Position numbers and translations under genes: made by a program
Shown here: positions 11,353 through 54,379 of the stretch, piece by piece
Position numbering within the stretch: the stretch's first letter is position 1
How the letters are laid out: every line of letters starts with the position of its first letter
Notes under the pieces: generated by a model
Databases searched by the model: none
Told to the model about the DNA's origin: nothing
The model's input: the letters and a program-made list of their open reading frames with translations, nothing else
Source: an uncultured bacterium
GTDB lineage: Bacteria > CSSED10-310 > CALFER01
Assembly (NCBI GenBank): GCA_937951895.1
Contig: CALFER010000034.1
Location: 137,674-201,673 of the forward strand
DNA: 64,000 nucleotides
Reading direction: 5' to 3'

Positions 11353-12026
11353 GCACTGATCAGTCCGATCAGCAACACGATTCCGCGTGCCGCGCGGACT
11401 CCGATGAGGCGTGCCGGACCGCTCCGATCGAGAGCCTCCAGAATCAGGACCGGGATGGGTGTGCGCGTCCAGAGTTTCATCGCGAGCTCACCGGGAATCG
11501 CGGCGCCGTTCATCGTGAGGTTTCCCGTGTTCCCGCGCCCTTCCGAATCACGCCACAGGGTCACCTCGTTCCCCGGCATGATTCCCTCCGACACAATCCG
11601 CACGATCAGCGACCCCTCACCCGGAGGCAGAGTTCGCTCAAATCGGATCATACCCCACTGGTTGTCCTGCAGATTGGCAAGATCCACGCGCGCCATCACG
11701 GTATCAGTCGAACCGGCGTCCTGTCCCGGCCGGCTCACCTCGACCCTCAGCACGCCCGAATTGACCCGGCAGTAGGTGCCGAATCGAAGCGACACAGCGG
11801 CGACGGGATCCCAATGCTCCGAATTGAGGCGCTGCTCGATGATGGTTCGGCCCGTCAAGGGATCACACGGCCGGTCAAACGAGATCGCTTCATACTGCAC
11901 GCGCAGAGAGCCCTCGAGGTACCAGGCCGGATCCGGGGGGACAAGCGGAACGAGCGGCAGACATACCAGCAGCCACAGCCAGCGGCATGTGCCACGCGTC
12001 TCCGACAACCGCGCCGGCGCCGTCAT
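11310..12026 (-). CDS. Hypothetical exported/membrane-anchored protein
   Basis: 238 aa. N-terminal signal-like WLWLLVCLPLVPLVP, C-terminal TM helix plus basic tail. No recognisable domain. ATGA-coupled to the kinase gene stop and overlaps the downstream TPR gene. Confidence 0.4.
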   Translation of the reverse strand: MTAPARLSETRGTCRWLWLLVCLPLVPLVPPDPAWYLEGSLRVQYEAISFDRPCDPLTGRTIIEQRLNSEHWDPVAAVSLRFGTYCRVNSGVLRVEVSRPGQDAGSTDTVMARVDLANLQDNQWGMIRFERTLPPGEGSLIVRIVSEGIMPGNEVTLWRDSEGRGNTGNLTMNGAAIPGELAMKLWTRTPIPVLILEALDRSGPARLIGVRAARGIVLLIGLISAWGIFRLLREVRRI

Positions 12027-15000
12027 GACCGGCGTCCGTGACCGATCTGCATGTCATGGGCGAGCGCTCGCATTGAATCGTCTTCTCCAAGTTCGACGTA
12101 CAGCCGCATCATGTCGAAAATCAGCTTTTTTCTCAAACCGGAATTCCAAAACAGCACAATCTCGGATTCTGAGAACCCCTGCGCCTGTCCCCGAAGCGTC
12201 CGAAGCAGCGCTTCTGCCTCCACGAGCGCCTCACGGGTCCGATGGTCGCGTTCGAGTGATTCGATGCCGAGCAATCGCCAGCGTGTCAGCGGAGGTTCGA
12301 TCGGGTAAGAGAGGATCTGCGGCCCCAGACGGTCGCGCCACTCCTCGAATCGACCCGGGTCGGACAAGGACAGATACTCCAGCAGATCGAGTGCCATCGG
12401 AAAAAACAGGATCCGATTCTCCGACCCGCACACATCCGAAACCTGCGATTCGATCCGTCGGATCGCCGCGTCACAGCGCCCGTCCAAAAAATCCTGCCTC
12501 GCACACGCGCGCTCGAACTCCATTCGCACATCAGCGGTTTCAATCTGTGATGCCGAGTCAACGATGTCCGCGAGACACCGCTCAGCCGCGCCGCGGATGT
12601 CGGACCAGGACTTTCGGGCCGCCAGCAATGACCGATGGCGGAGGAGTCCGTACATCACCGAAAACCGGGGATTCTGAACGATCCGGAGTCGCTGATCGAT
12701 CCGGTCGAGGTGTTCATCCACCCGGTCCGTGAATCCCAGCTCACCCGACCAGTAAGCCAACGTGATGCGCGACGGGATTTCATAGTCCAGGGCTTCAGGT
12801 AATGAAAAGGATTCGAGGGCTTTTGCGATCAGGCCGAGACCGGTGGCATATCGTCCCTGAAGAACAGCATCCAGCCCCAGTCGCACATGATTGTCAGCGA
12901 TCAGTGACTGGTCTTCGAGATCGATTGCGAGTCGCAGGGATTCCTCGTGTTTCTGCTGCGCCGCTGCCGGGAAACCGCGCGCACGGTCCAATTCCCCCAG
13001 ATTGGATGGAAGGATTGCACAAGCTGCGGCATGATCGATCGTCTGAGCCAGTTCCAGAGCTTCCCGGTTGCAGCGTTCCGACTCCTCGAACTCGCCCGCC
13101 AGAAACAGCGCCCAGGCAAGATTGACCATTGTCTGGACGACATGCGGTTTCATCTGAGCTCTCTCGAAGATCGCCAGACACTCCCGAAAATACTCCGCCG
13201 CCTGACGTTCGTTCCCGAGCGAGATCAGGACCAGGCCGATATTCGATCGGCTCCAGACTTCAAGCTGCCTGTTCCTGAGTCTGCGAGCATGATCGAGTGC
13301 CTGCCTGTAGACATCCAGAGCGTCGGGATACCACCCGAGTTTCCAGTTCTGGACACCGAGATTGATCAGGCAGGTCGTGAGCGGCGCGTCGTGCCCGAGT
13401 TCCTTCCAGATCCGCATCGATTTCTCTGTCAATTCGATGGCGCGCGGATACTGCCCCCGGGTCTCGGCGATCACCCCGAGCTTGTTGTAGGCACGGCCTT
13501 CATTGTACCGATCCGAGATCGTGACGGCCCGTGCGAGAGCAGACTCGTAGTCCTTCTCGGCAAGCGAAGTCCGGCCGGTTTCATTGAGTGCATCTCCGCG
13601 GCGATTCAGGCAATCCAGCAACAAAGTATGATCGATCACGCCCGGACTGTCATCCTTCGATCCCTCGATGATTTCGATTGCCCGCGAGTAGGATTGAATC
13701 GCATGGCCGTTCGCATAACGTCTGATTGCAGACTCGGCCGATCGGAACAGATACGGGGGGGCTTTTACGGAGCGATCCGAGGCGGACCAGTGGAACGCGA
13801 GAGCGTCGATGTCCGGATGCTCCCCGGCGCACCCCTCGAAATACTCCGCCAGCCTCCGATGATAAACACGCCGTCTCGAAGCGGACAGCCGCCCGTACAC
13901 CACTTCCTGAACCAGCGCCTGATCGAACTCGAAGAACTCATCGTCCCGCCCGCGTCGCTCGGACAGCACCCCGGCATGAAGCAACTCATCGAGGCAGTCG
14001 AACAGTTCCTCGGTATTATCTGCTGCCACCTCCCGAAGCAACTCGTACTGGAACCGTCTCCCCGCCACCGCGGCCCACTCCAGCACCTTTTTCGTCTTGT
14101 CCCGAATGGTCTCGATCCGCTGCAGAATCATGTCATGAATGCCTTTGGGCACCACCACGCTGCCGGAAGCGATTCCGGTCGAATCGGCCGGCACGGATTG
14201 CTGATTGCCGATGTCCAGATACCATTTCCCTTTTTTCCGGAACAGCGCTTTCGTCTCGAGCAGATTGATGATGATTTCCTCGAGAAAGAACGGATTGCCC
14301 CCGGTCATCTCGTGCAGCCAGGCAGCCAGTTTCGGCATGCTCTCATCGATACCCAGCATCGATCGGAGCATGGCCGACATGGCGTCTTGATTCAGAGGCC
14401 TGAGGAGCAATCGCTGAACGGATGAGGCGTGTGCCAATTCGGACGTCAGTTCCGACAGAGGCACGTTGGTCTCACTATCGGGAACCCGGTACACACAGAC
14501 GACGCTGAGGCGGCACGGATCGCCCGTGGTCGAGGCAGTCGAGGCATTCACGATGAAGCGTAAAAGATCGATCGCGTCGGGGTCCGCCCACTGGAGATTA
14601 TCGAGCGCGAGTAGGACGGGGTGACCTTCACCGATCCGCAGAAGGATCGACCGCACTGCGTTGAACAGCCGGAGACGCTCTTCGGCGGGGCTCAGTGATT
14701 CCGGTTCGATCTCACCCGGCATCGGTCCGAGATTGGCAAACCCCGGAAACGATCTCGCGAGAACAGGCCTGTCGTCACCGAGTGACTTCGCCTGAATCTC
14801 GGGAGAACTCCTCCATAATGAAGCACTGATCGCATCCATCACATCGGAAAAAGCCCGGAACGGCAGATTTTCACCGGGGAAGCACCGGGCGAAAAAGACT
14901 TTGCAGCCCTCGAGCCTCGCTTTCTGAACAACCTCACCGATCAGCCTGCTTTTCCCGATTCCCGCTTCGCCTTCAACCAGAATCACCGGTCGAAAGGCCC

Positions 15001-15988
15001 TCGTATTCGGATCCAGTGCCGCCCGGATCTGCGCCATCTCCTCATCGCGACCGCTGAAGCCGGGATCCCAGTGGGGCTCGATCCGTTTTGCATCGGAGTC
15101 GATCGAATCGAGCATGTCCGACACGAGCGTTTCGCCGGTCAGGAAGCTCAGATACTCTTCCCAGCGCCTTTTAAGATCCTGTGCGTTGGGGAAACGCCGA
15201 TGCGGATCTTTTTCGAGCAGCCGCATGATGATCGATTCGATTTCAGGAGTGACATTCGGATTGAGAAACGACGGAGGCGCGGGCTGTTCATCGACATGCT
15301 TGAACAGGATATCCATCGGCCGGTCGCCTGAAAACGGCTTCTGTCCGGTCACGATTTCATAGAGGAGGACGCCGAGTGAATAAAGATCGGAGCGGGGATC
15401 GAGGCGTGCGCCGCGGCATTGCTCCGGCGACATGTAAGCCACCGTGCCGATAACCGCTCCGGTTTTCGTCAGCGCAACCGATGCATCGATTTCACGCGCC
15501 AGGCCGAAATCCATGATCTTGGCGTCGCCGTCCGTCGTGACCATGATGTTTGCGGGTTTGAGATCACGGTGAATGAGACTTCGGGTGTGGATGTAGTAAA
15601 GGGCCGAGCAGATCTGGGTCATGATCTTGCAGGTCTGGACCAGACGACGGGTCGCCCGGACATCGTTTTTCCGATAACTGCTCTCCCAGTCCCGCATGGA
15701 ATCCTTCAGCGTGCTGCCCTCGATGAATTCCATCGTGAAATACGGGGTTCGATCGATCATGCCATAACTGAAAACCCGAATGACATGGGGATGGTTGAGG
15801 CGCGCGATGGAGCGGAATTCCCGCTGGAAACGATACGTGCCACCGGGCGAGCGCGACAGGAGGGTTTTCAACGCAACCCGTCGGCCGGTGTCGGTTTCCT
15901 CGGCAAGATAAACCTCGCCCATCCCACCATGCCCGAGCAGGTGGAGAATTCGATATCCATCGATGAACTCCGGGAGATGCGACGCCAT
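12023..15988 (-). CDS. Ser/Thr protein kinase fused to an AAA_16/STAND-type P-loop NTPase and a long TPR array (PknK/MalT-like architecture)
   Basis: 1321 aa. Hanks kinase motifs: GxGxxG (LGHGGMGEV), VALK, HRDLKPANIM, DFGLA, YMSPE. Walker A GEAGIGKS about 60 aa after the kinase, Walker B-like VLLALDNLQWAD. The C-terminal roughly 650 aa are TPR repeats. Confidence 0.85.
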   Translation of the reverse strand: MASHLPEFIDGYRILHLLGHGGMGEVYLAEETDTGRRVALKTLLSRSPGGTYRFQREFRSIARLNHPHVIRVFSYGMIDRTPYFTMEFIEGSTLKDSMRDWESSYRKNDVRATRRLVQTCKIMTQICSALYYIHTRSLIHRDLKPANIMVTTDGDAKIMDFGLAREIDASVALTKTGAVIGTVAYMSPEQCRGARLDPRSDLYSLGVLLYEIVTGQKPFSGDRPMDILFKHVDEQPAPPSFLNPNVTPEIESIIMRLLEKDPHRRFPNAQDLKRRWEEYLSFLTGETLVSDMLDSIDSDAKRIEPHWDPGFSGRDEEMAQIRAALDPNTRAFRPVILVEGEAGIGKSRLIGEVVQKARLEGCKVFFARCFPGENLPFRAFSDVMDAISASLWRSSPEIQAKSLGDDRPVLARSFPGFANLGPMPGEIEPESLSPAEERLRLFNAVRSILLRIGEGHPVLLALDNLQWADPDAIDLLRFIVNASTASTTGDPCRLSVVCVYRVPDSETNVPLSELTSELAHASSVQRLLLRPLNQDAMSAMLRSMLGIDESMPKLAAWLHEMTGGNPFFLEEIIINLLETKALFRKKGKWYLDIGNQQSVPADSTGIASGSVVVPKGIHDMILQRIETIRDKTKKVLEWAAVAGRRFQYELLREVAADNTEELFDCLDELLHAGVLSERRGRDDEFFEFDQALVQEVVYGRLSASRRRVYHRRLAEYFEGCAGEHPDIDALAFHWSASDRSVKAPPYLFRSAESAIRRYANGHAIQSYSRAIEIIEGSKDDSPGVIDHTLLLDCLNRRGDALNETGRTSLAEKDYESALARAVTISDRYNEGRAYNKLGVIAETRGQYPRAIELTEKSMRIWKELGHDAPLTTCLINLGVQNWKLGWYPDALDVYRQALDHARRLRNRQLEVWSRSNIGLVLISLGNERQAAEYFRECLAIFERAQMKPHVVQTMVNLAWALFLAGEFEESERCNREALELAQTIDHAAACAILPSNLGELDRARGFPAAAQQKHEESLRLAIDLEDQSLIADNHVRLGLDAVLQGRYATGLGLIAKALESFSLPEALDYEIPSRITLAYWSGELGFTDRVDEHLDRIDQRLRIVQNPRFSVMYGLLRHRSLLAARKSWSDIRGAAERCLADIVDSASQIETADVRMEFERACARQDFLDGRCDAAIRRIESQVSDVCGSENRILFFPMALDLLEYLSLSDPGRFEEWRDRLGPQILSYPIEPPLTRWRLLGIESLERDHRTREALVEAEALLRTLRGQAQGFSESEIVLFWNSGLRKKLIFDMMRLYVELGEDDSMRALAHDMQIGHGRRS

Positions 15989-16022: not shown

Positions 16023-19000
16023 TCAAGGTGCGTCGAGGCGAATCGGCTGTTCGGGTCGAGCCGGCCCTTTCGATCGGGTCGATCGGAATCGCATCCCGTA
16101 CGACACGCCGAGCAGCAGCACGGCCATGCCGGCGATCGATACAGCCGGAACGGCAACGGATTGCGCCAGCGTCTCACCGACACACTCGGCATACACCGGG
16201 CCGAGATAGCTGTAGGGCGGGGGACTCTCGATATCCGACTCATAATACCGGATCCCGATGAAGTAGGTCACACCGTTCGCGATATCATCGGGAACAGTCA
16301 ATGTGGTCATGACGGCCGGTGCGGGGACCCGTTTTTCATGCGTGTAAACACCGGATTGCGTACCCCAGACCACGACATGCCCGGAATACGCCGCCCGATC
16401 ACGCTTCTCTTCTTCCTCATCCCAGCTCACATCGATGCTGTTGATCTTACCCATGATCGCCATTCCATGAACACCCTCGATCGAACCGGACAGGGTAAAC
16501 TGACTGTTCATATCGTCCGGCAACGCCACGCCATCCTGATCGTTCATCCCGGATATCCGAATTGTCTGTGTGCCACCCGTACCGGCGAGTGACTCGTCGA
16601 TCATGATGTCGCCCGACCAGAGCGTGCCGTGAATCCAGATGCCTGCGAATACACCGATATCGTAATCAGGAACAGGGCCGAATGTCACCGACAAGGGCAT
16701 TGCCTGGTTCATCTCCTTTGAAAAAACGAGATCGACATGCAAAGGACCCATCGGAACGATGCCGGATGGCGTCAGAGTGACGGATTCCAGACACGCGGGA
16801 GCTTCAGTTGTATAATCCATCAGATAACCCGATGTATCGACCGTGACGAGTGTCGGAATGTCATAACTGTCGTAAATCAGATCCGTTGCGCCGAACGGCA
16901 GTTGTGCCGTCGTATACGGCCCCCAGTAATTCTGCATTGCCGGGAAAGACCATACGGGCGGATTGGCGGGAACATACGCATAGTAGTCGAATCCTCCCAG
17001 CGGATTCGCCCCGAAAATGTTCGATTGCTGGATGACCGGCGCTGCCGTGTAGGGCATTGCAAGTTCGTAAGCGCTGATGTTCTGAGTTCCCCCGCTTGCG
17101 TCTCCGATCGTCGTGCATCTCAGGATCGTCGGACTTCCTCCGGTCGAAGATGCCAGATCCTCGAACCGGAGATTATTCAGGCATCTGTTGAACAGACAGC
17201 GATCCACGCACGTGCTGTTCGCGCCGCTCATCTTCAATCCCATCTCGCTCGACATAAACGTGCATCGGCTGATGTACGGAGATGCTGTCGAGGCGCTGCC
17301 TTCGGACGCGCACGACACGGCGGGATTCCCGTTCTCGAAACGACACCATTCCAAAATGGATCCCCCAAGGAAGATTCCGTCGGGCGGCATCGAGGAATAG
17401 ACCGCCGAGACACTGCCCGGCATGAAACGGATTCCATCCCATATGGCATCCTCCGCACCTTCGAAGATAACGAGATCTCCCGGAGCACCAACGGCCGACA
17501 ACTCACCGAACACACTCAAACCGGTTCCGGTCTGAAACATGATCCGCACACCGGGCTCGACCATCAGCGCAGTTGCCGGCGCAACGACGATCGGGGAGAT
17601 GACCTGGTAATGCCGGGCCGGAACGACAGCTCCCGGCCCCAGGATACCATAAACACCTCCACTCAATTCTCGCGGTCCGAGCGTGACCCGAAGCTCACTG
17701 GATTGCATCGCTCCGCTGGCCGGCTGGATAACTACCGTCAGCAGATATGTTTCACCGTACACCGCATCATCATCCGCATCGATCCGGAACGATACCGGCA
17801 CATTCTGGCCAAAACCGATATGTCCGGCCAGTTGCGGATTGTTCGTCACGATCAGATCCGGATGGGTCGACAGAAGTGTCACGATGACCGATTCCGCGTC
17901 GGCCCATTCGTTCCGGATTGAAAATGTGAAATCATAGATGTCACCCGGGTCGAACCGACCATCCGAGTCCATGTCGAAAAACGGTGTCACCTCCGGAACG
18001 GACGCGATGAGATCGGGTTGAGGCACCGCTGTGAGCGCTGCGCCGAGATCGATCGATTTTCGTGAATTGCCTTCCGGATCGGTAAAAACGGATGCGGTAT
18101 GGATGAGGTGGGCCGCGATAAACCCGGCGGTCCAGGTCGGATCGCCCAGATGATACGAGCGCAGGAGCGCTGCACCGGCACTCGCGTGCGGACAGGCCAT
18201 CGACGTCCCGCTGGAACCCGCATACGGATTCCGTAATCCGTTCTCCATCCAGGTGCTCTGGAATACACTGACACCCGGAGCGAACAGGTCGATTTCGAGA
18301 CCATGGTTGCTGAAATCCGCGATCGTTCCGGAGCATGTCAATGCGCCTACCGAGAGCACCTCCGCGTACGCGGCGGGATATTTTACCTCATTCTGAGCAT
18401 CGTTCCCCGCAGCACCGACCACGTTGATTCCCGCGGTCGATGCCGCATCGATCGCCGCCCAGAGAGCCGGATCATGATTCGACGCCGTAAACGAGCAATT
18501 GATGACCGACGCGCCCTGCTGCACGGCATATGCGATTCCCGCGACAGCCGATGCGATCGAGCCGGTCAGGTGATCATCCAGAATCTTGATCGACATCACG
18601 GGGCAGTTCCAGGCGATACCCGCGACACCGACAGCATCGTTACCGCGGGCCGCGATCACGCCCGCCACCTGAGTTCCATGACCGTTGTCATCCGATGGAT
18701 CGGCATCCGAGTTGACGAAATCCCATCCGTACAGATCGTCGACGAACCCATTGCTGTCATCATCCAGGCCGTTGAACACTTCCAGCGGGTTGCTCCAGAG
18801 CTGCGACCACAGGTCGGGATGGTCGATGTCGATTCCGCTGTCGAGGATGGCCACGGAGACCGATGCGTGCCCCGTCGAGACGTTCCAGGCGGTTTCGGCG
18901 CCGATATCGTGTACGCCTGAAGGGAAAAATGCGGCAGATCCGTGCCCGAGCGAGTATTGAAGGCCCTGTAAGTAGTAAGTGTCATCCGGAATCAGCGCCC

Positions 19001-19295
19001 CGTGAATCCGGTAGTTCGGCTCCGCGAACAGAGCCGGGTTCGCTTGCATCAGTTTCCCGGCCGACGCACGCGGATCGGCCAGATCCGACAAACGTACACG
19101 CCACCAGACGGATCCAGCGTGCGACAGCAGGACTTCCGCAGTCTGAATCGGTCCGACCGCGCCGGCCATCGCCGTCTCGATCGCCAGCCTCTCCGGCAAC
19201 CGGACGATCAGTTCGTTCTCGACCCAGTCGTCGTTTCCCGCATGCGCGCAGACCGACGCCAGAAGGAGAATCCCCCAGAAAGATGTTGTTTTCAT
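16023..19295 (-). CDS. Subtilisin-like (S8) serine protease, about 1090 aa, with beta-helix-like C-terminal region and C-terminal TM/basic tail
   Basis: GGAGGA RBS 4 nt upstream of the ATG at 19295 (MKTTSFWGILLLASVCAHA signal peptide). Catalytic triad motifs DSGIDIDHPDL, HGTQVAGVIAA and GTSMACPHASGAAALL. Cys-rich parallel beta-helix-like repeats (CTFMSSEMGLKMSGANSTCVDRCLFNRC). The protein ends in AVPAVSIAGMAVLLLGVSYGMRFRSTRSKG. Confidence 0.85.
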   Translation of the reverse strand: MKTTSFWGILLLASVCAHAGNDDWVENELIVRLPERLAIETAMAGAVGPIQTAEVLLSHAGSVWWRVRLSDLADPRASAGKLMQANPALFAEPNYRIHGALIPDDTYYLQGLQYSLGHGSAAFFPSGVHDIGAETAWNVSTGHASVSVAILDSGIDIDHPDLWSQLWSNPLEVFNGLDDDSNGFVDDLYGWDFVNSDADPSDDNGHGTQVAGVIAARGNDAVGVAGIAWNCPVMSIKILDDHLTGSIASAVAGIAYAVQQGASVINCSFTASNHDPALWAAIDAASTAGINVVGAAGNDAQNEVKYPAAYAEVLSVGALTCSGTIADFSNHGLEIDLFAPGVSVFQSTWMENGLRNPYAGSSGTSMACPHASAGAALLRSYHLGDPTWTAGFIAAHLIHTASVFTDPEGNSRKSIDLGAALTAVPQPDLIASVPEVTPFFDMDSDGRFDPGDIYDFTFSIRNEWADAESVIVTLLSTHPDLIVTNNPQLAGHIGFGQNVPVSFRIDADDDAVYGETYLLTVVIQPASGAMQSSELRVTLGPRELSGGVYGILGPGAVVPARHYQVISPIVVAPATALMVEPGVRIMFQTGTGLSVFGELSAVGAPGDLVIFEGAEDAIWDGIRFMPGSVSAVYSSMPPDGIFLGGSILEWCRFENGNPAVSCASEGSASTASPYISRCTFMSSEMGLKMSGANSTCVDRCLFNRCLNNLRFEDLASSTGGSPTILRCTTIGDASGGTQNISAYELAMPYTAAPVIQQSNIFGANPLGGFDYYAYVPANPPVWSFPAMQNYWGPYTTAQLPFGATDLIYDSYDIPTLVTVDTSGYLMDYTTEAPACLESVTLTPSGIVPMGPLHVDLVFSKEMNQAMPLSVTFGPVPDYDIGVFAGIWIHGTLWSGDIMIDESLAGTGGTQTIRISGMNDQDGVALPDDMNSQFTLSGSIEGVHGMAIMGKINSIDVSWDEEEEKRDRAAYSGHVVVWGTQSGVYTHEKRVPAPAVMTTLTVPDDIANGVTYFIGIRYYESDIESPPPYSYLGPVYAECVGETLAQSVAVPAVSIAGMAVLLLGVSYGMRFRSTRSKGPARPEQPIRLDAP

Positions 19296-19414
19296 TCCAA
19301 TCCTCCTAAAATGCGTCTCCGGTACGATACCGGAGCAACTATCAAATAACGTCATCGGCTGCTTTTAGTTAATTGTGCGTGGCGGTGAATGTCAAATCGC
19401 GCAGTGAGTTCTCA

Positions 19415-43162: not shown

Positions 43163-44750
43163 GGAATCGCTCCCGTGTCAGCACTCCGAGATCTCTGGCG
43201 GCTCGTACGAGCGCTCCGGCGATCGGCGCGGCAACCCGTCCACCCTGCCCACCCTGTTCCAGTACGATGGCGAAGGCGATGGTCGGTTGCGGCCACGGAG
43301 CAAATCCGATGAACAGAGCATGACTCTGGCCCGTGGCGTTCTCAGCCGTCCCGGTCTTCCCGCCGACCACTACCCCATCGACCGCTGCCGCTCGACCCGT
43401 GCCGCTTTCGACCACCCGCACCATCAACTGCGCAACCTTCTCGGCCACGTTCGAATCGGTCAGATATCGGTACGGTATCGGTTTTTCCTCGAGCAGGTAA
43501 CGCGGCTGAAACATCGTTCCACCCGACGCGACGGCGGCTGCGAGCATTGCGAGATGCATGGGAGTGACGAGCACGGCATCCTGGCCGATCGCAACACGAA
43601 CGGTCCTCGCAATATGCAGATCATCACGGTTCGGCAAGCGTCCCGACATCGATGACGGACCACGATTGACCGGAACGATCGGGCGATCGAATCCGGCCCG
43701 GCGTGCGGCATCCATGAGATTCCTGCTGCCGAGTCGTTCTGCGAGATTCGCGAAATAGACATTGCATGATTTTTCGAATGCCGTCTCCAGGCCGATCCGC
43801 CCGTGTCCGCCAAACTGACCGCCTCTCGAGTCATGTTCGAAATCGTGCAGGACCGGATCCGCGGGACCGCAGTAGAACCCCTCATGTGAACAGGTGAATT
43901 CCGGTGCGATACCGTGCTCGAACGCAAGCATCACATCGAGCACCTTGAACGTGGAGCCGGGCGGATACAATCCCTGAAGCGCCCGGTTCAGAAACGGGCT
44001 GTCGGCGTCTTCCCGCAAGCGCCGAACGCGATCCGGTGTCATTCCCTGCGGATCGAAGGACGGACAGGACACCATGGCCAGAACGGATCCGTCTCGCGGA
44101 TCGATCACGACAATCGCGCCCGGTTTCCCCCCCAGCAGATCCGCGGTTGCGGCCTGGAACTCCTCCGCGAGCGTCAAATGCACGGGATGCCCGTGAAGCG
44201 TCCGGTGAACGAACAGGCTCCCGAGCAACCGTACGGCATCCCGCCAGCCGCTCATCCGCCGGGCCATCAGGATGTCATCGAGTTCGCGTTCAAGTCCCGT
44301 CGCGCCGTAAACTGCATCATGATACCCGATCAGATGCACCGCGCGGCCGCCCAGCGCATACGAGCGGCTCAACCCCTGCTGCATGCGCACGTCCTGCGCG
44401 AGCGGTTTCCCATGCACATCCAGGATCTCGCCCCGGTGAAATCGGTTCCCGACCAGATCCCCGCGAGGATCGAATCCGCGTTGCGCTGCGAGAAAATCCG
44501 GGTCCATGAATCCAGCCAACTGCCAGCGCGCCTGATAGGCCAGAATCAGCAGGAACAGGATGAGGGGGATCCGTCCGAGCCGCCTGATGAGGGGCGATTT
44601 GATGGGCTGAGTCGGTGCCGCGTTCGCGACCAGCCGCCATGTGAAGTGAAGAATCAGAACAAGAAGAAACAGGCTGCCGATCCAATGAAGCGCGCTGGCG
44701 GGGTCGAGCAGTACGCTGCGATCCACGGTGCGCTCCGGTTCCGGGATCAA
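43149..44750 (-). CDS. mrdA: Penicillin-binding protein 2 (class B transpeptidase)
   Basis: 533 aa. N-terminal TM, dimerisation domain, transpeptidase motifs STFKV, SHE-like and KTGTAE. Confidence 0.85.
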   Translation of the reverse strand: MIPEPERTVDRSVLLDPASALHWIGSLFLLVLILHFTWRLVANAAPTQPIKSPLIRRLGRIPLILFLLILAYQARWQLAGFMDPDFLAAQRGFDPRGDLVGNRFHRGEILDVHGKPLAQDVRMQQGLSRSYALGGRAVHLIGYHDAVYGATGLERELDDILMARRMSGWRDAVRLLGSLFVHRTLHGHPVHLTLAEEFQAATADLLGGKPGAIVVIDPRDGSVLAMVSCPSFDPQGMTPDRVRRLREDADSPFLNRALQGLYPPGSTFKVLDVMLAFEHGIAPEFTCSHEGFYCGPADPVLHDFEHDSRGGQFGGHGRIGLETAFEKSCNVYFANLAERLGSRNLMDAARRAGFDRPIVPVNRGPSSMSGRLPNRDDLHIARTVRVAIGQDAVLVTPMHLAMLAAAVASGGTMFQPRYLLEEKPIPYRYLTDSNVAEKVAQLMVRVVESGTGRAAAVDGVVVGGKTGTAENATGQSHALFIGFAPWPQPTIAFAIVLEQGGQGGRVAAPIAGALVRAARDLGVLTRERFHDGR

Positions 44751-45727
44751 CCCTGAGCCGGTTGCGATTGATCGTCGTATACGCCGATATTGCGATACTT
44801 GTCATACCGGCGCTGCATCAGTTCTTCGGTCGACCAGCCGAGCATTTCACGGAGATGACGCCGGATCGCACGTCGGAGCATTCCGGCGGCCCGGGACGGG
44901 TTCCGATGCGCGCCTCCCGTGGGCTCCCGGACGATCTCATCGACCATCTTGTGCGCCAACAGACTCGGGGGCGTCAACTGCAGGGCGCGAGAAGCCTCGG
45001 GGGCTTTCGCGTTGTCCCTCCAGAGAATCGCGGCGCAGCCTTCGGGTGAAATGAGCGAATACATGGCGAACTGCTGAATCAGCACCCGATCGCCCACGCC
45101 GACTCCCAGCGCGCCACCACTGCCGCCTTCTCCGATGACCGAGACGATGATCGGAGTTCTCAGCATCGACATCTCGCGGACATTCCGCGCAATCGCCTCA
45201 GCCTGCCCGCGCTCCTCAGCGCCCACCCCGGGATACGCACCCGGAGTATCGATGAAGACCAGCACCGGCATCCGGAACCGCTCGGCAATCTCCATGATCC
45301 TGAGCGCTTTTCGATACCCTTCAGGATGCATCATCCCGAAATTGCGCTTGACCTTTTCCTGGATGTCACTGCCCTTCTGCTGCCCCACGACAACGACCGG
45401 CACACCGTCGAGCCGTGCCATGCCGGTCACCACCGCGAGATCATCGCGGAAGAGACGATCACCGTGCAGTTCCACGAAATCCGTCGTGATCATCCGGATG
45501 TAATCCAGAGCGTGCGGGCGATGCGGATGACGCGAAACCTGAACAATCTCCCAGGAGTCCAGACGCTCGAAGATTCGATGCGTGATCTGTGACAATCGGC
45601 GTTCGAGTTGCCGGATTTCCATTTTCAGACCACCATTGCCCCGCGAATCGATTTCACGCAACTTGCGAATCTGAGCCTCAAGCTCAATTATCGGTTTTTC
45701 AAATTCCAATCCATCCGATCCAGCCAT
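44747..45727 (-). CDS. accA: Acetyl-CoA carboxylase carboxyltransferase alpha subunit
   Basis: Start at 45727 (MAGSDGLEFEKPIIELEAQI...) with a GGAGG RBS. Crotonase-fold CT-alpha motifs. ATGA-coupled to mrdA. Confidence 0.85.
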   Translation of the reverse strand: MAGSDGLEFEKPIIELEAQIRKLREIDSRGNGGLKMEIRQLERRLSQITHRIFERLDSWEIVQVSRHPHRPHALDYIRMITTDFVELHGDRLFRDDLAVVTGMARLDGVPVVVVGQQKGSDIQEKVKRNFGMMHPEGYRKALRIMEIAERFRMPVLVFIDTPGAYPGVGAEERGQAEAIARNVREMSMLRTPIIVSVIGEGGSGGALGVGVGDRVLIQQFAMYSLISPEGCAAILWRDNAKAPEASRALQLTPPSLLAHKMVDEIVREPTGGAHRNPSRAAGMLRRAIRRHLREMLGWSTEELMQRRYDKYRNIGVYDDQSQPAQG

Positions 45728-45825
45728 TCCGTCGCCTCCATTCCCGCGTCCCAGGTTGGGCGAACTATACATGAACGGTATCCGTCGATGCAATGGAGGA
45801 TCGAATCGTCCTGCGGTACCAATCC

Positions 45826-47645
45826 TCAGGCTGATGCCTCAACCCGGATGGGAACCCGACAGACCGGATTGCCGAACGATTCAAACCAAGCCACCTGTTC
45901 ACGAACCAGATCGAAAACAACAACATAATCACCCGGACGCTCCGGCAACATGATCTTCACCGCGATCCGCACGGACTCTCCGGGATAAAACTGCGGAGGT
46001 AACCGGTATCGCTCTCCATCATAACAGACCGGCTCTCCGGCATCGGTCAGAATATGGTAGGATAACGCGTAGAATGTCGGATCGGCTGAATCCGGAGGTG
46101 GAGACAGCCATGGAACGGATCCCGAATTCGTGATCTGGATCTCGAAAGAGACGCATCGACCGGATTGCTGTTCAGCCTCCATCTTACCGGGCACCATCTC
46201 GGCACGCACACAACGTTTCAATTCTTCAACATATGAGCAGCATGCGCCGATGCACAGGGCGTAGGACCCGTCAAGAATCGTCCGGCGAAGAAGTTGACTC
46301 GTCGGCGAGTTCCATACCTCAACGGCCGATTGGGTGGTAAGATTTCCAATCGAAATCGATGAAAACCGGAAAATTCTGCAATCTCCGTTCACCTTGACGG
46401 ACAGGTACATCCAGGGATATCGACATTGCTCGATATCCTGCGGAACGGCATCCAGTTGCACTTCCTCAAGAACCTCGATCGTAATCCTTCTATTGATACC
46501 AAACCAACGATGACCTTCGTTGACCAGATCGAATTCGATCGTGTATCGTCCCGGATTTTCCGAAACAGCAACCAGACACTCCATCCGCACTGATTCACCG
46601 GATCGGATGGGATGAGGCAGCTGTGATCGGATTCCATCGAAACGAATCAGTTCGTTGCGTTCATCATACAGATGATATGCCAGCGACACCGCGCTCGATG
46701 ACGTCGCGCTCCGGGCGGGAAGCCATGTAAACGGAGAATGATTGGTGATCTCGATTGTGAACCGGCACGGACTGTCTATGCAGTATCGTGCCGGTGAAGA
46801 TTGAACGGCAATGGCTCCCATATAGAATCGGTCATCCGGAACCTCCGCAGATTCAACCGGTACGACAAAATCCGGGATGTTCTTCCGAACGTCGATTCCC
46901 AGTCGACCCGCGAGCGCAACGGCATCACTCAGTGTTCGCCGGACTTCATCCGACTTCAGATCGATGGACTGCGAAGCGGTTTCCTGACTGATGCTATAAA
47001 GATTTGAGATCGCCAACGTTGTCGCGCCGAACCGATGGGCAATGGCCACCAACTCCCCGATCTGATCTACATTATCCCGCAATGCGACCGTCGCGATGGT
47101 CAGCATGGGAGTTACTGAACGGGCCTTCGTCTTCATGGTTGCCAGACAACCGAGATTTTCCATCAGTTGATCGAAATTCGCTCCCCGTCGAATCGATTCA
47201 TACGTCTCGGGTGTTGCGCCGTCGATGCTCACAGCGAGTTCACTTAAACCCGACCGGATGATTCGCCGGATGATATGCTTCTCAAGCGCTTTGCCGTTCG
47301 TGAAGATTTTGGATCGAGGGGGGTTCACCTTTTTGATCTGTTTCAGGACAAATCGAATATGGGGATACATGAGCGGTTCACCCTGATCGGCATACTGAAC
47401 CGATGCAGCCCATGGGAGCAGCTCTTTCGAAGCTTTCTTGAGAATTTTCAGGTCCATGTCGCGACCAGCCAGAGCGTAGGTCCGAATCATGCAGAAAAGA
47501 CACAGCCATTACAGCGCGTGGTAATCTCAAAACGGAGATAGGGCGGTTTCGAATTTAACTCGACCCTGCCGTCACACCGTTCCCGATAGGCCTGCATGTA
47601 GTTTTTAAATGCCCGCGAATGCTGTCTACCAAGAAAGAAATCCAT
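45826..47645 (-). CDS. Radical SAM / SPASM-domain protein with two duplicated ~100-aa domains; reading frame interrupted by an apparent 1-nt deletion inside the CX3CX2C motif (authentic pseudogene or sequencing error)
   Basis: The N-terminal fragment (47487..47645/47681) ends ...YLRFEITTRCNGCVFSA*. The +2 frame continues LCLFCMIRTY..., which would restore the canonical CNGLCLFC, and the downstream ORF carries the GEPLMYPH SAM-binding motif. SPASM signature CRYPWMYLSVKVNGDCRIF...CIGACC. Confidence 0.7.
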
Positions 47646-47747
47646 GCTCACCCCCCGATCCGGAATCGATCTCAATCCCACGCGTCCCGTTCCGGCCTGC
47701 TGGGACCCAAGCGCTTCGCTCGATTCCCGGATCGCGTGACCGGATCT

Positions 47748-52819: not shown

Positions 52820-54379
52820 TCAGGGCCACGGGGCGCAAATTAAAAACGCCTCGATCGGCGTGCGTCGCCCCTTGACGACAGCCGGTCCGACTGGTCTGAG
52901 ACGGAACTCGTCGCGCGCAATCGCAGCCGTCGGGGCGCCGAGAGCGATCTGGTCCGGACCCGCGATTTCCTGCTGGAGGCGTTGAGCGATATTGACCGCA
53001 TCACCGATGACCGTGTAATCACGTCGGATCGCCGCACCGATGTCACCGGCAATCACACGGCCCGTGTTGATGCCCGATCGGATACAGATCCGGTTGTCAG
53101 GACTCGCGGATGCATTTTTCACGGAGAGCTTCCTGTGCAGCGAGACAGCGGCTCGAACCGCCCGGATCGTGTCGTCTTCGCACGCGATCGGTGCACCGAA
53201 AACCGCCATGAATCCGTCTCCGAGATACTTGTCGAGAGTGCCGCCGAATTCGAACACGGTATCGACCGCGAGTTCGAAGAACGCATCCACGCGCAGTTCG
53301 ACCTCGGCCGGCGTGTGACGCTCGGCATAGGGCGTGAACCCATGGATGTCGCAGAACCAGACGGTCGCCGTGCGCAACTCCGGGAGAATCGATCCCCCCC
53401 TCCGAAGGATTTCCTCGACAACCGCCGGGGAATGGAACTGAGCCAGCCGCTGGCGGACCCGGTCCATCCGGGCGATCTCCTCCAGCAATCGGCTCTGTTC
53501 GAGACCGACAGCGAGCAGATTGGCGAAAGCGGTGAGGATTTCAAGCGACGAGGGTCTGAACAATCGTTTCAGTTCACGTGTTTCCGCCGTGATGACGCCG
53601 AGCAGTCGGTCGTCGACGAGCATCGGAGCGGCCATGAGCGAACGGATTCCTTTTGCAACAATGCTTTCCGCACTCTGAAACGCACTCAGCCCCACATCCT
53701 CCGCCAGAATCGCAATCCGCTCCCGGATCACCCGCGAAAGCAGCGTCCGGCTGATGGGACCGGCAGACGCCGCCGGGCAGCAGTCCGGATCCGCGATGCG
53801 CCTGATCGACGCCGGGTCGGGAGTTCCATCGGGTGCAACGAGATGAATCTCGCAGGTGTCTGCACCGATCAGTTCATGAATGAGATCGATGCCGGCAAGC
53901 AGAAGGTCTCCGGCCGTACGCATCCGTATCAGGTCACGGGATAACCGGACAATGTTGCGGAATGCACGCTCATCCAGATCACCCGGAGAGGAGATCGACG
54001 AATCGGTTCTCAGAAGTCTCGCGGGCTGGAAAATATGGGTTTCGTTGAGGAGTTCGTCCGAGCCGAGCATCGGCTCCTCATCGGCCGATTCAGCAACCAG
54101 TTCGAACTCGAGATTCCCGACCCGGATCCGGTCTCCGGGATTCAATACCGTCGTTCGCACACGGTTTCCGTTGACCCACGTGCCGTTGCGGCTATCCAGA
54201 TCCTCAATCCGGACCTTCCCCGGTTCGATGACCAGGGCCGCATGCTGTCTGGAGATGTTGGAGGCGGATTTGAACACGAGATCGCTGGGATGCTGGCGTC
54301 CCAGGACCCATCGACCCGAGGCGGGTAGCGGATACTTCTCCTCCGGCCGATCGGTTCGTCTCAATCCTAACCGAATCAC
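52820..54379 (-). CDS. FHA domain - GAF domain - class III adenylate/guanylate cyclase
   Basis: GTG start overlapping the smc stop (GTGA). N-terminal FHA (WVLGRQHPSDLVFKSASNISRQHAAL...GTWVNG), central GAF-like region, C-terminal cyclase homology domain (TVWFCDIHGFT, GDGFMAVFGAP, RSGINTGRVIAGDIG, YTVIGDAVNIAQRL). Confidence 0.8.
   Translation of the reverse strand: MIRLGLRRTDRPEEKYPLPASGRWVLGRQHPSDLVFKSASNISRQHAALVIEPGKVRIEDLDSRNGTWVNGNRVRTTVLNPGDRIRVGNLEFELVAESADEEPMLGSDELLNETHIFQPARLLRTDSSISSPGDLDERAFRNIVRLSRDLIRMRTAGDLLLAGIDLIHELIGADTCEIHLVAPDGTPDPASIRRIADPDCCPAASAGPISRTLLSRVIRERIAILAEDVGLSAFQSAESIVAKGIRSLMAAPMLVDDRLLGVITAETRELKRLFRPSSLEILTAFANLLAVGLEQSRLLEEIARMDRVRQRLAQFHSPAVVEEILRRGGSILPELRTATVWFCDIHGFTPYAERHTPAEVELRVDAFFELAVDTVFEFGGTLDKYLGDGFMAVFGAPIACEDDTIRAVRAAVSLHRKLSVKNASASPDNRICIRSGINTGRVIAGDIGAAIRRDYTVIGDAVNIAQRLQQEIAGPDQIALGAPTAAIARDEFRLRPVGPAVVKGRRTPIEAFLICAPWP

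Follow-up and report, generated by a model that had tools for sequence, protein, structure and literature searches.

Radical S-adenosylmethionine (SAM) enzymes with a full SPASM domain have a seven-cysteine pattern, CX9-15GX4C ... CX2CX5CX3C ... C, and two auxiliary clusters. Twitch, or truncated SPASM, enzymes such as BtrN, MoaA and SkfB, also represented by the model NF033640 (N_Twi_rSAM), combine a core bearing the CX3CX2C motif with one C-x(n)-G-x4-C domain and four cysteines, features shared by the family considered here. The FW domain of fungal Nbr1 has been reported to bind folded protein cargo (Ams1), and FW domains occur in diverse bacterial proteins (PMC9233695). Here, we describe a radical SAM gene encoding both a twitch-type domain and two FW domains. 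It lies on a 64,000-nucleotide (nt) stretch of contig CALFER010000034.1 of an uncultured bacterium (assembly GCA_937951895.1); this whole stretch is called the window, and all positions refer to it. The gene is broken. We estimate a probability of about 0.8 that it became a pseudogene only recently and derives from a radical SAM family that is rare and uncharacterised, has two FW domains and, where intact, is linked to signalling.

The interrupted gene and its lesions

The radical SAM gene occupies positions 45826-47645 on the minus strand and is cut in two by a 1-nt deletion in codon 47, within the CX3CX2C motif. In frame 0 of this strand, a 64-codon open reading frame (ORF, 47487-47681) ends in ...YLRFEITTRCNGCVFSA*. 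Three-frame translation of the junction gave ...LCLFCMIRTYALAGR... (...LCLFCMIRTY) in the -1 frame, which continues into a 554-codon ORF (45826-47490) opening with MIRTYALAGR.... When one base is re-read after C-N-G, the sequence becomes C-N-G-L-C-L-F-C, the canonical CX3CX2C. The initial annotation had explained the two ORFs as one gene of about 605 amino acids (aa) broken by a single-base indel in this motif, and this was borne out by an intact 604-aa orthologue (P0002, 83% identity) retrieved in a protein search. The other matches were a protein identical to the 554-aa ORF (P0001), found on at least nine contigs, and an intact, more distant protein of 618 aa (P0003, 38% identity).

The orthologue also locates the lesion. 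Its DNA at the junction reads TGT AAC ATG TTG TGT CTG TTC TGC, against TGT AAT -GG CTG TGT CTT TTC TGC in the window, and its protein across the motif is RCNMLCLFCMIRTY. The missing base is therefore at about 47506-47507 (minus strand), in the residue after C45-N46; it is a single base, as annotated, but some 15 nt away from the interval 47485-47495 originally suggested. The start codon is most likely the ATG at 47645 (MDFF...), which would give a repaired protein of about 606 aa. It has a Shine-Dalgarno-like GGGGGGTGAG ahead of it, and both the ATG and GGGGGGTGAG are kept in the intact orthologue (locus L007). The 5' fragment (47487-47645, minus strand) runs from this ATG to a premature TGA and comprises residues 1-46 followed by six out-of-frame residues (GCVFSA). 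The 3' fragment (45826-47490, minus strand) opens at the conserved Met53, directly after the third cysteine of the motif. Translation would stop after 52 residues, and the downstream ORF would lack all three cysteines of the cluster. An uninterrupted CX3CX2C is absent from the window copy, while C45, C49 and C52 are intact in all eight other family members.

A second disabling lesion was found in the auxiliary domain. We aligned nine full-length members of the family (the window protein, P0002, P0003, the protein of locus L012, and P0143-P0147). Exactly seven cysteine positions are invariant, three for the radical SAM cluster (C45, C49, C52) and four for the auxiliary cluster (C408, C426, C465, C470). 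In the eight other members 57 columns are invariant, and the window protein departs from them at a single one: codon 426 (46369-46371, minus strand) is TTC, encoding Phe, where all eight others have Cys (TGC in the orthologue). C426F would additionally remove an invariant ligand of the auxiliary cluster. Both iron-sulphur sites are thus damaged, one by the deletion in CX3CX2C and the other by C426F, and because of the motif loss and this substitution the window copy cannot work as a radical SAM enzyme. It descends from a member of the radical SAM superfamily and is not functional itself.

Apart from these lesions, the gene is well preserved. The ratio of nonsynonymous to synonymous divergence (dN/dS) between the gene and its orthologue is 0.23; the same ratio is 0.06 for dnaE, 0.007 for accA and 0.09 for mrdA. 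When amino-acid changes were polarised with P0003 and the L012 protein as outgroups, 17 fell on the window lineage and 25 on that of P0002. Judged from these sequences, the inactivation is recent and the gene shows no general decay. For annotation, this means that the two ORFs are one dead gene, to be marked as a pseudogene rather than as a "radical SAM protein".

The initial annotation suspected a homopolymer or an assembly error at the junction. However, six assemblies (ENA ERZ724083, ERZ724084 and ERZ724086; Logan SRR3330207, SRR3330208 and SRR3330212), which represent two pipelines and at least three runs, all have this junction, and their copies of the gene are 100% identical. The deletion site is GG within TGGCTG, with no homopolymer. 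Since the junction is common to six assemblies and the site is not homopolymeric, an assembly or read artefact is very unlikely. The low coverage of the ENA contigs (3.9-6.4x, judged from contig names) and the good conservation of the ORF outside the lesions would suit a gene that is intact and functional in the organism and was only misread, but C426F is a substitution, that is, an independent second loss of an iron-sulphur ligand, which cannot be explained as an indel artefact. We have rejected this explanation on the strength of the six identical junctions and the additional substitution.

Even harder to credit is that the break is bypassed by programmed -1 frameshifting, or tolerated because the two products (52 aa and 554 aa) reassemble into an enzyme that is active though split. 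The upstream TGA does overlap the downstream ATG as ATGA (GCATGATT), a layout that can permit termination-reinitiation, but this ATGA merely reflects the conserved Met53 codon and also occurs in the intact orthologue. AAT GGC TGT contains neither a slippery heptamer nor a homopolymer, the peptide keeps C45 and one out-of-frame cysteine, neither product has C49 or C52, C426 is gone as well, and the other family members are all single ORFs (8/8). The split orthologues that, according to the initial annotation, would have argued for a genuinely divided gene were not found; the orthologues are intact.

Domain architecture of the family

The repaired 606-aa protein matches the Pfam model Radical_SAM (PF04055) at residues 40-170 with 55.2 bits against a cutoff of 29.5, and SPASM (PF13186) at residues 408-465 with 25.7 bits against a cutoff of 21.5. 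The radical SAM core covers residues ~1-260 (46867-47645, minus strand) and contains the broken C45-x3-C49-x2-C52 together with a QGEP SAM-binding motif. In the full-length AlphaFold2 model of the orthologue, the predicted local distance difference test (pLDDT) score is 75, with values above 90 in the core, which is modelled as a partial TIM barrel. Foldseek searches with this model returned DesII, viperin, BlsE, SuiB, SkfB, GDGT-MAS, NifB and MoaA, and no specific nearest neighbour; the matches to viperin, DesII, BlsE, SuiB, NifB and MoaA had E 1e-10.

The auxiliary domain (46222-46443, minus strand) follows the pattern C408-x12-G421-x4-C426 ... C465-x4-C470, invariant in eight members and with Phe instead of C426 in the window. 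The SPASM assignment of the initial annotation stands as far as the profile match is concerned, but the full seven-cysteine pattern is absent: only four cysteines are conserved in the nine members, and no CX2CX5CX3C is present. In the relatives, alignment with NF033640 places the auxiliary segment in the twitch part of that model. On its cysteine pattern, this domain should be a one-cluster, twitch-type truncated SPASM, predicted to hold one [4Fe-4S] cluster.

Two homologous, beta-rich units of ~110 aa flank the auxiliary module, as had been noticed in the initial annotation. The first (46462-46821, minus strand) is an insertion, which an alignment with relatives of ~340 aa places after the radical SAM core ends and before the first cysteine of the auxiliary domain; the second (45835-46197, minus strand) is C-terminal. 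Pairwise BLASTP of the two units yielded 33 identities over 88 positions (38%, E 3e-19). A profile built from 12 family units finds both of them in the window ORF (E 5e-48 and 6e-46) and no further FW domains in the window. The motif common to the units and their relatives is N.S..W ... Y[HR] ... DG.R..LP ... PGES ... PG.Y...FDLV.EG..WF. An intact enzyme of the family (~605-635 aa) would consist, in order, of the core with CX3CX2C, an inserted FW domain, the four-cysteine twitch domain and a further, C-terminal FW domain. Neither a signal peptide nor a membrane segment was seen by eye in the sequence (no predictor was run), and the protein looks cytoplasmic.

The repeated unit had been taken as unrecognised. 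We assign it, as a divergent member, to an established family, the FW or NBR1-like immunoglobulin (Ig) domains (PF16158, N_BRCA1_IG), which is common in bacteria and also occurs on other radical SAM proteins. The window protein scores 24.2 bits on this model at residues 549-585, just under the cutoff of 28; eight of the 12 family units match it (best E 7.5e-7), and the homologues retrieved by the family profile score 35-157 bits. The fold is a beta-sandwich of the FW type. The FW domain is named after four conserved tryptophans; the family units show one or two conserved tryptophans, namely the W of a ...PW strand in most units and the W of an invariant WF. A sequence search of the PDB with the FW profile gave no meaningful match, and it took a comparison of folds to recognise the domain there. 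The proteins retrieved by the profile carry tandem arrays of 3-12 FW copies fused to S8 and M6 peptidases, amidase_2, SpoIID, GH18, sulfatase and CAP domains, and one to three copies are also found on other radical SAM/SPASM proteins. We know of no function assigned to a bacterial FW domain.

A loop of the first FW domain with low model confidence (window ~46536-46559, residues ~312-319) is rich in Ser and Thr in all members that have a kinase gene nearby (SATSSSA, PTSSSA, PTETC, PSNMS, ASSAS; see below). It is not so in the three members linked to response regulators. Speculatively, this loop is a candidate phospho-acceptor site.

The architecture is very rare. An exhaustive profile search among 1.84 billion representatives found the core-FW-twitch-FW layout, full-length and collinear, in only six clusters (clustering at 50% identity). 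When contigs of genomes and metagenomes were scanned, the L012 protein was the sole addition; at full length, the metagenome-contig scan returned only the P0002 contig. A word-indexed protein search added only P0144.

Gene neighbourhoods and possible function

In the window, the radical SAM gene lies between dnaE and accA-mrdA-rodA, and nothing functionally suggestive is found there. The intact members are different. The initial annotation had called for orthologues with the same repeat-SPASM-repeat layout; these exist, they are intact, and at all seven loci with enough flank they are adjoined by signalling genes, a Ser/Thr kinase in four and a response regulator in three. The kinase is within two genes of the radical SAM gene. 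In L007 (P0002), a gene for an 842-aa Ser/Thr kinase-TPR protein is located 66 nt upstream on the same strand. In L171 (P0144), from a metagenome-assembled genome (MAG) of candidate division CSSED10-310, a 952-aa kinase-TPR is encoded two genes downstream, with a GGDEF/STAND gene upstream. Homology between these two kinases extends over their whole length (27% identity, E 6e-92). L172 (P0143) has a 715-aa kinase two genes downstream, and L173 (P0145) an adjoining, divergently transcribed kinase-WD40 gene. In the sister clade, L012 and L174 (P0146) share the order radical SAM-response regulator-methyl-accepting chemotaxis protein (MCP), and a response regulator-GGDEF gene adjoins divergently in L175 (P0147).

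As controls, we used loci of other radical SAM relatives. A Hanks kinase domain was found within 5 kb in 0 of 62 of them, and a receiver domain within 3 kb in 1 of 71. Fisher's exact test for 4/7 versus 0/62, calculated by hand, gives p ~4e-5. That the intact members lie so regularly by signalling genes is statistically unusual.

The window and L007 are collinear except at one place. Where L007 has the 2.6-kb Ser/Thr kinase-TPR gene (L007 7354-9986), the window has a 102-nt spacer between dnaE and the radical SAM gene (47646-47747). In the blastn comparison, DNA identity is 91% and 86% on either side, and neither a kinase remnant nor a flanking repeat was found in the spacer. The kinase and the enzyme may have been lost together in the window lineage; as the spacer holds no remnant, the kinase gene may just as well have been inserted in the other lineage.

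These observations suggest what the intact enzyme could do. Its chemistry would be that of a 5'-deoxyadenosyl radical, directed at a macromolecule, most probably a protein. In fungal Nbr1, the folded protein Ams1 is docked by the FW domain, and by analogy the FW domains here would bind the substrate or a partner. The enzyme would be coupled to a signalling pathway, with a Hanks-type Ser/Thr kinase in the clade of the window and a response regulator, MCP or GGDEF protein in the sister clade. We therefore put forward, tentatively and at well below even odds, that the family comprises unrecognised signalling-coupled iron-sulphur enzymes, either protein-modifying or signal-sensing, each with a dedicated partner. 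In one clade, the partner would be a Hanks kinase that has a TPR or WD40 scaffold; in the other, it would be a response regulator, MCP or GGDEF protein. The FW domains would hold the signalling protein for radical modification by the enzyme, or the partner would switch the enzyme. The window would then record the loss of a whole module, with the kinase gene gone and both iron-sulphur sites of the enzyme destroyed. To our knowledge, a connection with bacterial kinase signalling has been made for few radical SAM enzymes. The intact P0002 and the adjoining kinase-TPR are a tractable pair for studying both this link and the function of bacterial FW domains.

Several points weigh against our interpretation of the locus and of the family. 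The six assemblies with the same junction probably come from one study, as their accession numbers are adjacent, and may sample a single clonal population; a literature search for the SRR and ERZ accessions found no paper citing them. The control loci are from other taxa, perhaps poorer in kinases. The kinases of L172 and L173 are of the generic Hanks type and not orthologues of the kinase-TPR of L007 and L171, so that the link between enzyme and kinase may be loose. L010 (P0003) has no signalling gene within its 1-1.6 kb of flank. The co-loss is a single event, for which insertion of the kinase gene in the lineage of the orthologue is an equally good explanation. The substrate and reaction of the intact family are purely what we infer. 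Finally, bacterial FW arrays are mostly found on secreted hydrolases, a setting in which they could bind glycans or the envelope just as well as proteins.

This last point speaks for an enzyme acting on a cell-envelope glycan or peptidoglycan precursor, with the FW domains as carbohydrate-binding modules and the signalling neighbours as a coincidence. We consider this unlikely, as envelope genes are not conserved as neighbours in L012, L171, L172, L173, L174 and L175, and as the protein looks cytoplasmic.

Slightly less likely still is the idea, raised in the initial annotation, of a peptide maturase, that is, an enzyme acting on a ribosomally synthesized and post-translationally modified peptide (RiPP), with the FW domains replacing the RiPP recognition element (RRE) and the precursor encoded elsewhere. 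The nearest solved or curated relatives do include SuiB, SkfB, PqqE and the mycofactocin and sactipeptide maturases, and short unannotated ORFs adjoin some members (55 aa in L175, 68 aa in L010). However, no RRE or PqqD-like domain was detected (no Pfam match at E <= 1), and the protein extends by just ~35 aa at its N-terminus. Small ORFs are not conserved over the eight loci, and there is no room for one in the window or L007; the initial annotation had rightly noted that no precursor ORF adjoins the window gene. All curated maturase models remain far below cutoff, and the conserved neighbours are signalling proteins. We have rejected this reading for want of an RRE and of a conserved small ORF. 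In sum, what was observed in the initial annotation is confirmed, and how it was interpreted is partly supported.

Other genes of the window were noted in passing. Two genes upstream of dnaE, an FHA-GAF-adenylate/guanylate cyclase gene (52823-54379, minus strand) is kept in L007; since FHA domains read phospho-threonine, it is one more gene of the region that belongs to Ser/Thr-kinase signalling. A gene for a 1321-aa Ser/Thr kinase-AAA_16-TPR protein, STAND-like (12026-15988, minus strand), lies directly downstream of one for a 1110-aa S8 subtilase (16026-19355, minus strand), whose ~690 C-terminal residues have no Pfam match. This kinase is only generically related to the one absent beside the radical SAM gene (28% identity in the kinase domain). 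The accA ORF (44747-45793, minus strand) starts from TTG and has 348 aa, while the public gene calls of 326 aa (L001) and 341 aa (L007) are shorter. Translation of accA probably starts downstream of 45793, so the gap after the radical SAM stop codon exceeds the apparent 32 nt. No Rfam family reaches its gathering score in the whole 64-kb window (no tRNA, rRNA or riboswitch).

Relation to known systems

No curated NCBIfam model comes near its cutoff: the best score of the window protein is 117.9 bits against 380, and the relatives score 110-152 bits against 380-400. Over the core, the best models for the window protein and all relatives tested are TIGR04317, a radical SAM maturase of a tungsten-cofactor oxidoreductase, and TIGR04311, a putative metalloenzyme maturase, with 100-135 bits. 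The likeness is confined to the core, residues ~35-260. The family differs from both in scoring far below their cutoffs of 380-400 bits, and the partner genes expected for them are not in its neighbourhoods. An anti-phage defence system was also considered and rejected, as the PADLOC matches consist of generic similarity of the core to pVip (33-54 bits) and of generic kinase-domain matches of the neighbouring kinases.

Other radical SAM proteins with FW domains include a 453-aa protein of Vicinamibacteria with an N-terminal twitch, a 711-aa protein of Sumerlaeota, P0149, P0154 and others. They carry the same FW motif, ...PG.Y...FDLV.EG..WF, on radical SAM/SPASM cores. Unlike in the family described here, their FW domains stand at the C-terminus (one to three copies) or at the N-terminus and do not enclose the twitch. 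Their cores are of other subfamilies, with 25-30% identity that is confined to the core. The 453-aa protein, with an N-terminal twitch and a single C-terminal FW domain, is widespread in MAGs of Vicinamibacteria and Acidobacteriota (L023, L024, L026, L035, L036, L058, L075). It sits among housekeeping genes, its neighbours are uninformative, and it dominates the FW-profile matches (580, mostly fragments).

Among FW proteins, the comparators are PF16158, human NBR1 (4OLE), ILRUN (6VHI) and Chaetomium Nbr1 (7VQO). The family differs from them in that its FW domains are fused to a cytoplasmic iron-sulphur enzyme, with the window units just below the Pfam cutoff. A literature search found no paper on a fusion of radical SAM and FW domains.

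The locus itself is an ordinary pseudogene; the family belongs to a known enzyme class, of which it represents a variant not yet described, and its link to kinases and two-component signalling can be tested. It is a very rare radical SAM architecture, for which we found neither a curated model nor a paper, and in which two FW domains bracket a one-cluster twitch. Compared with the twitch enzymes BtrN, MoaA and SkfB, it differs in having one FW domain between the core and the twitch and a second one after the twitch.

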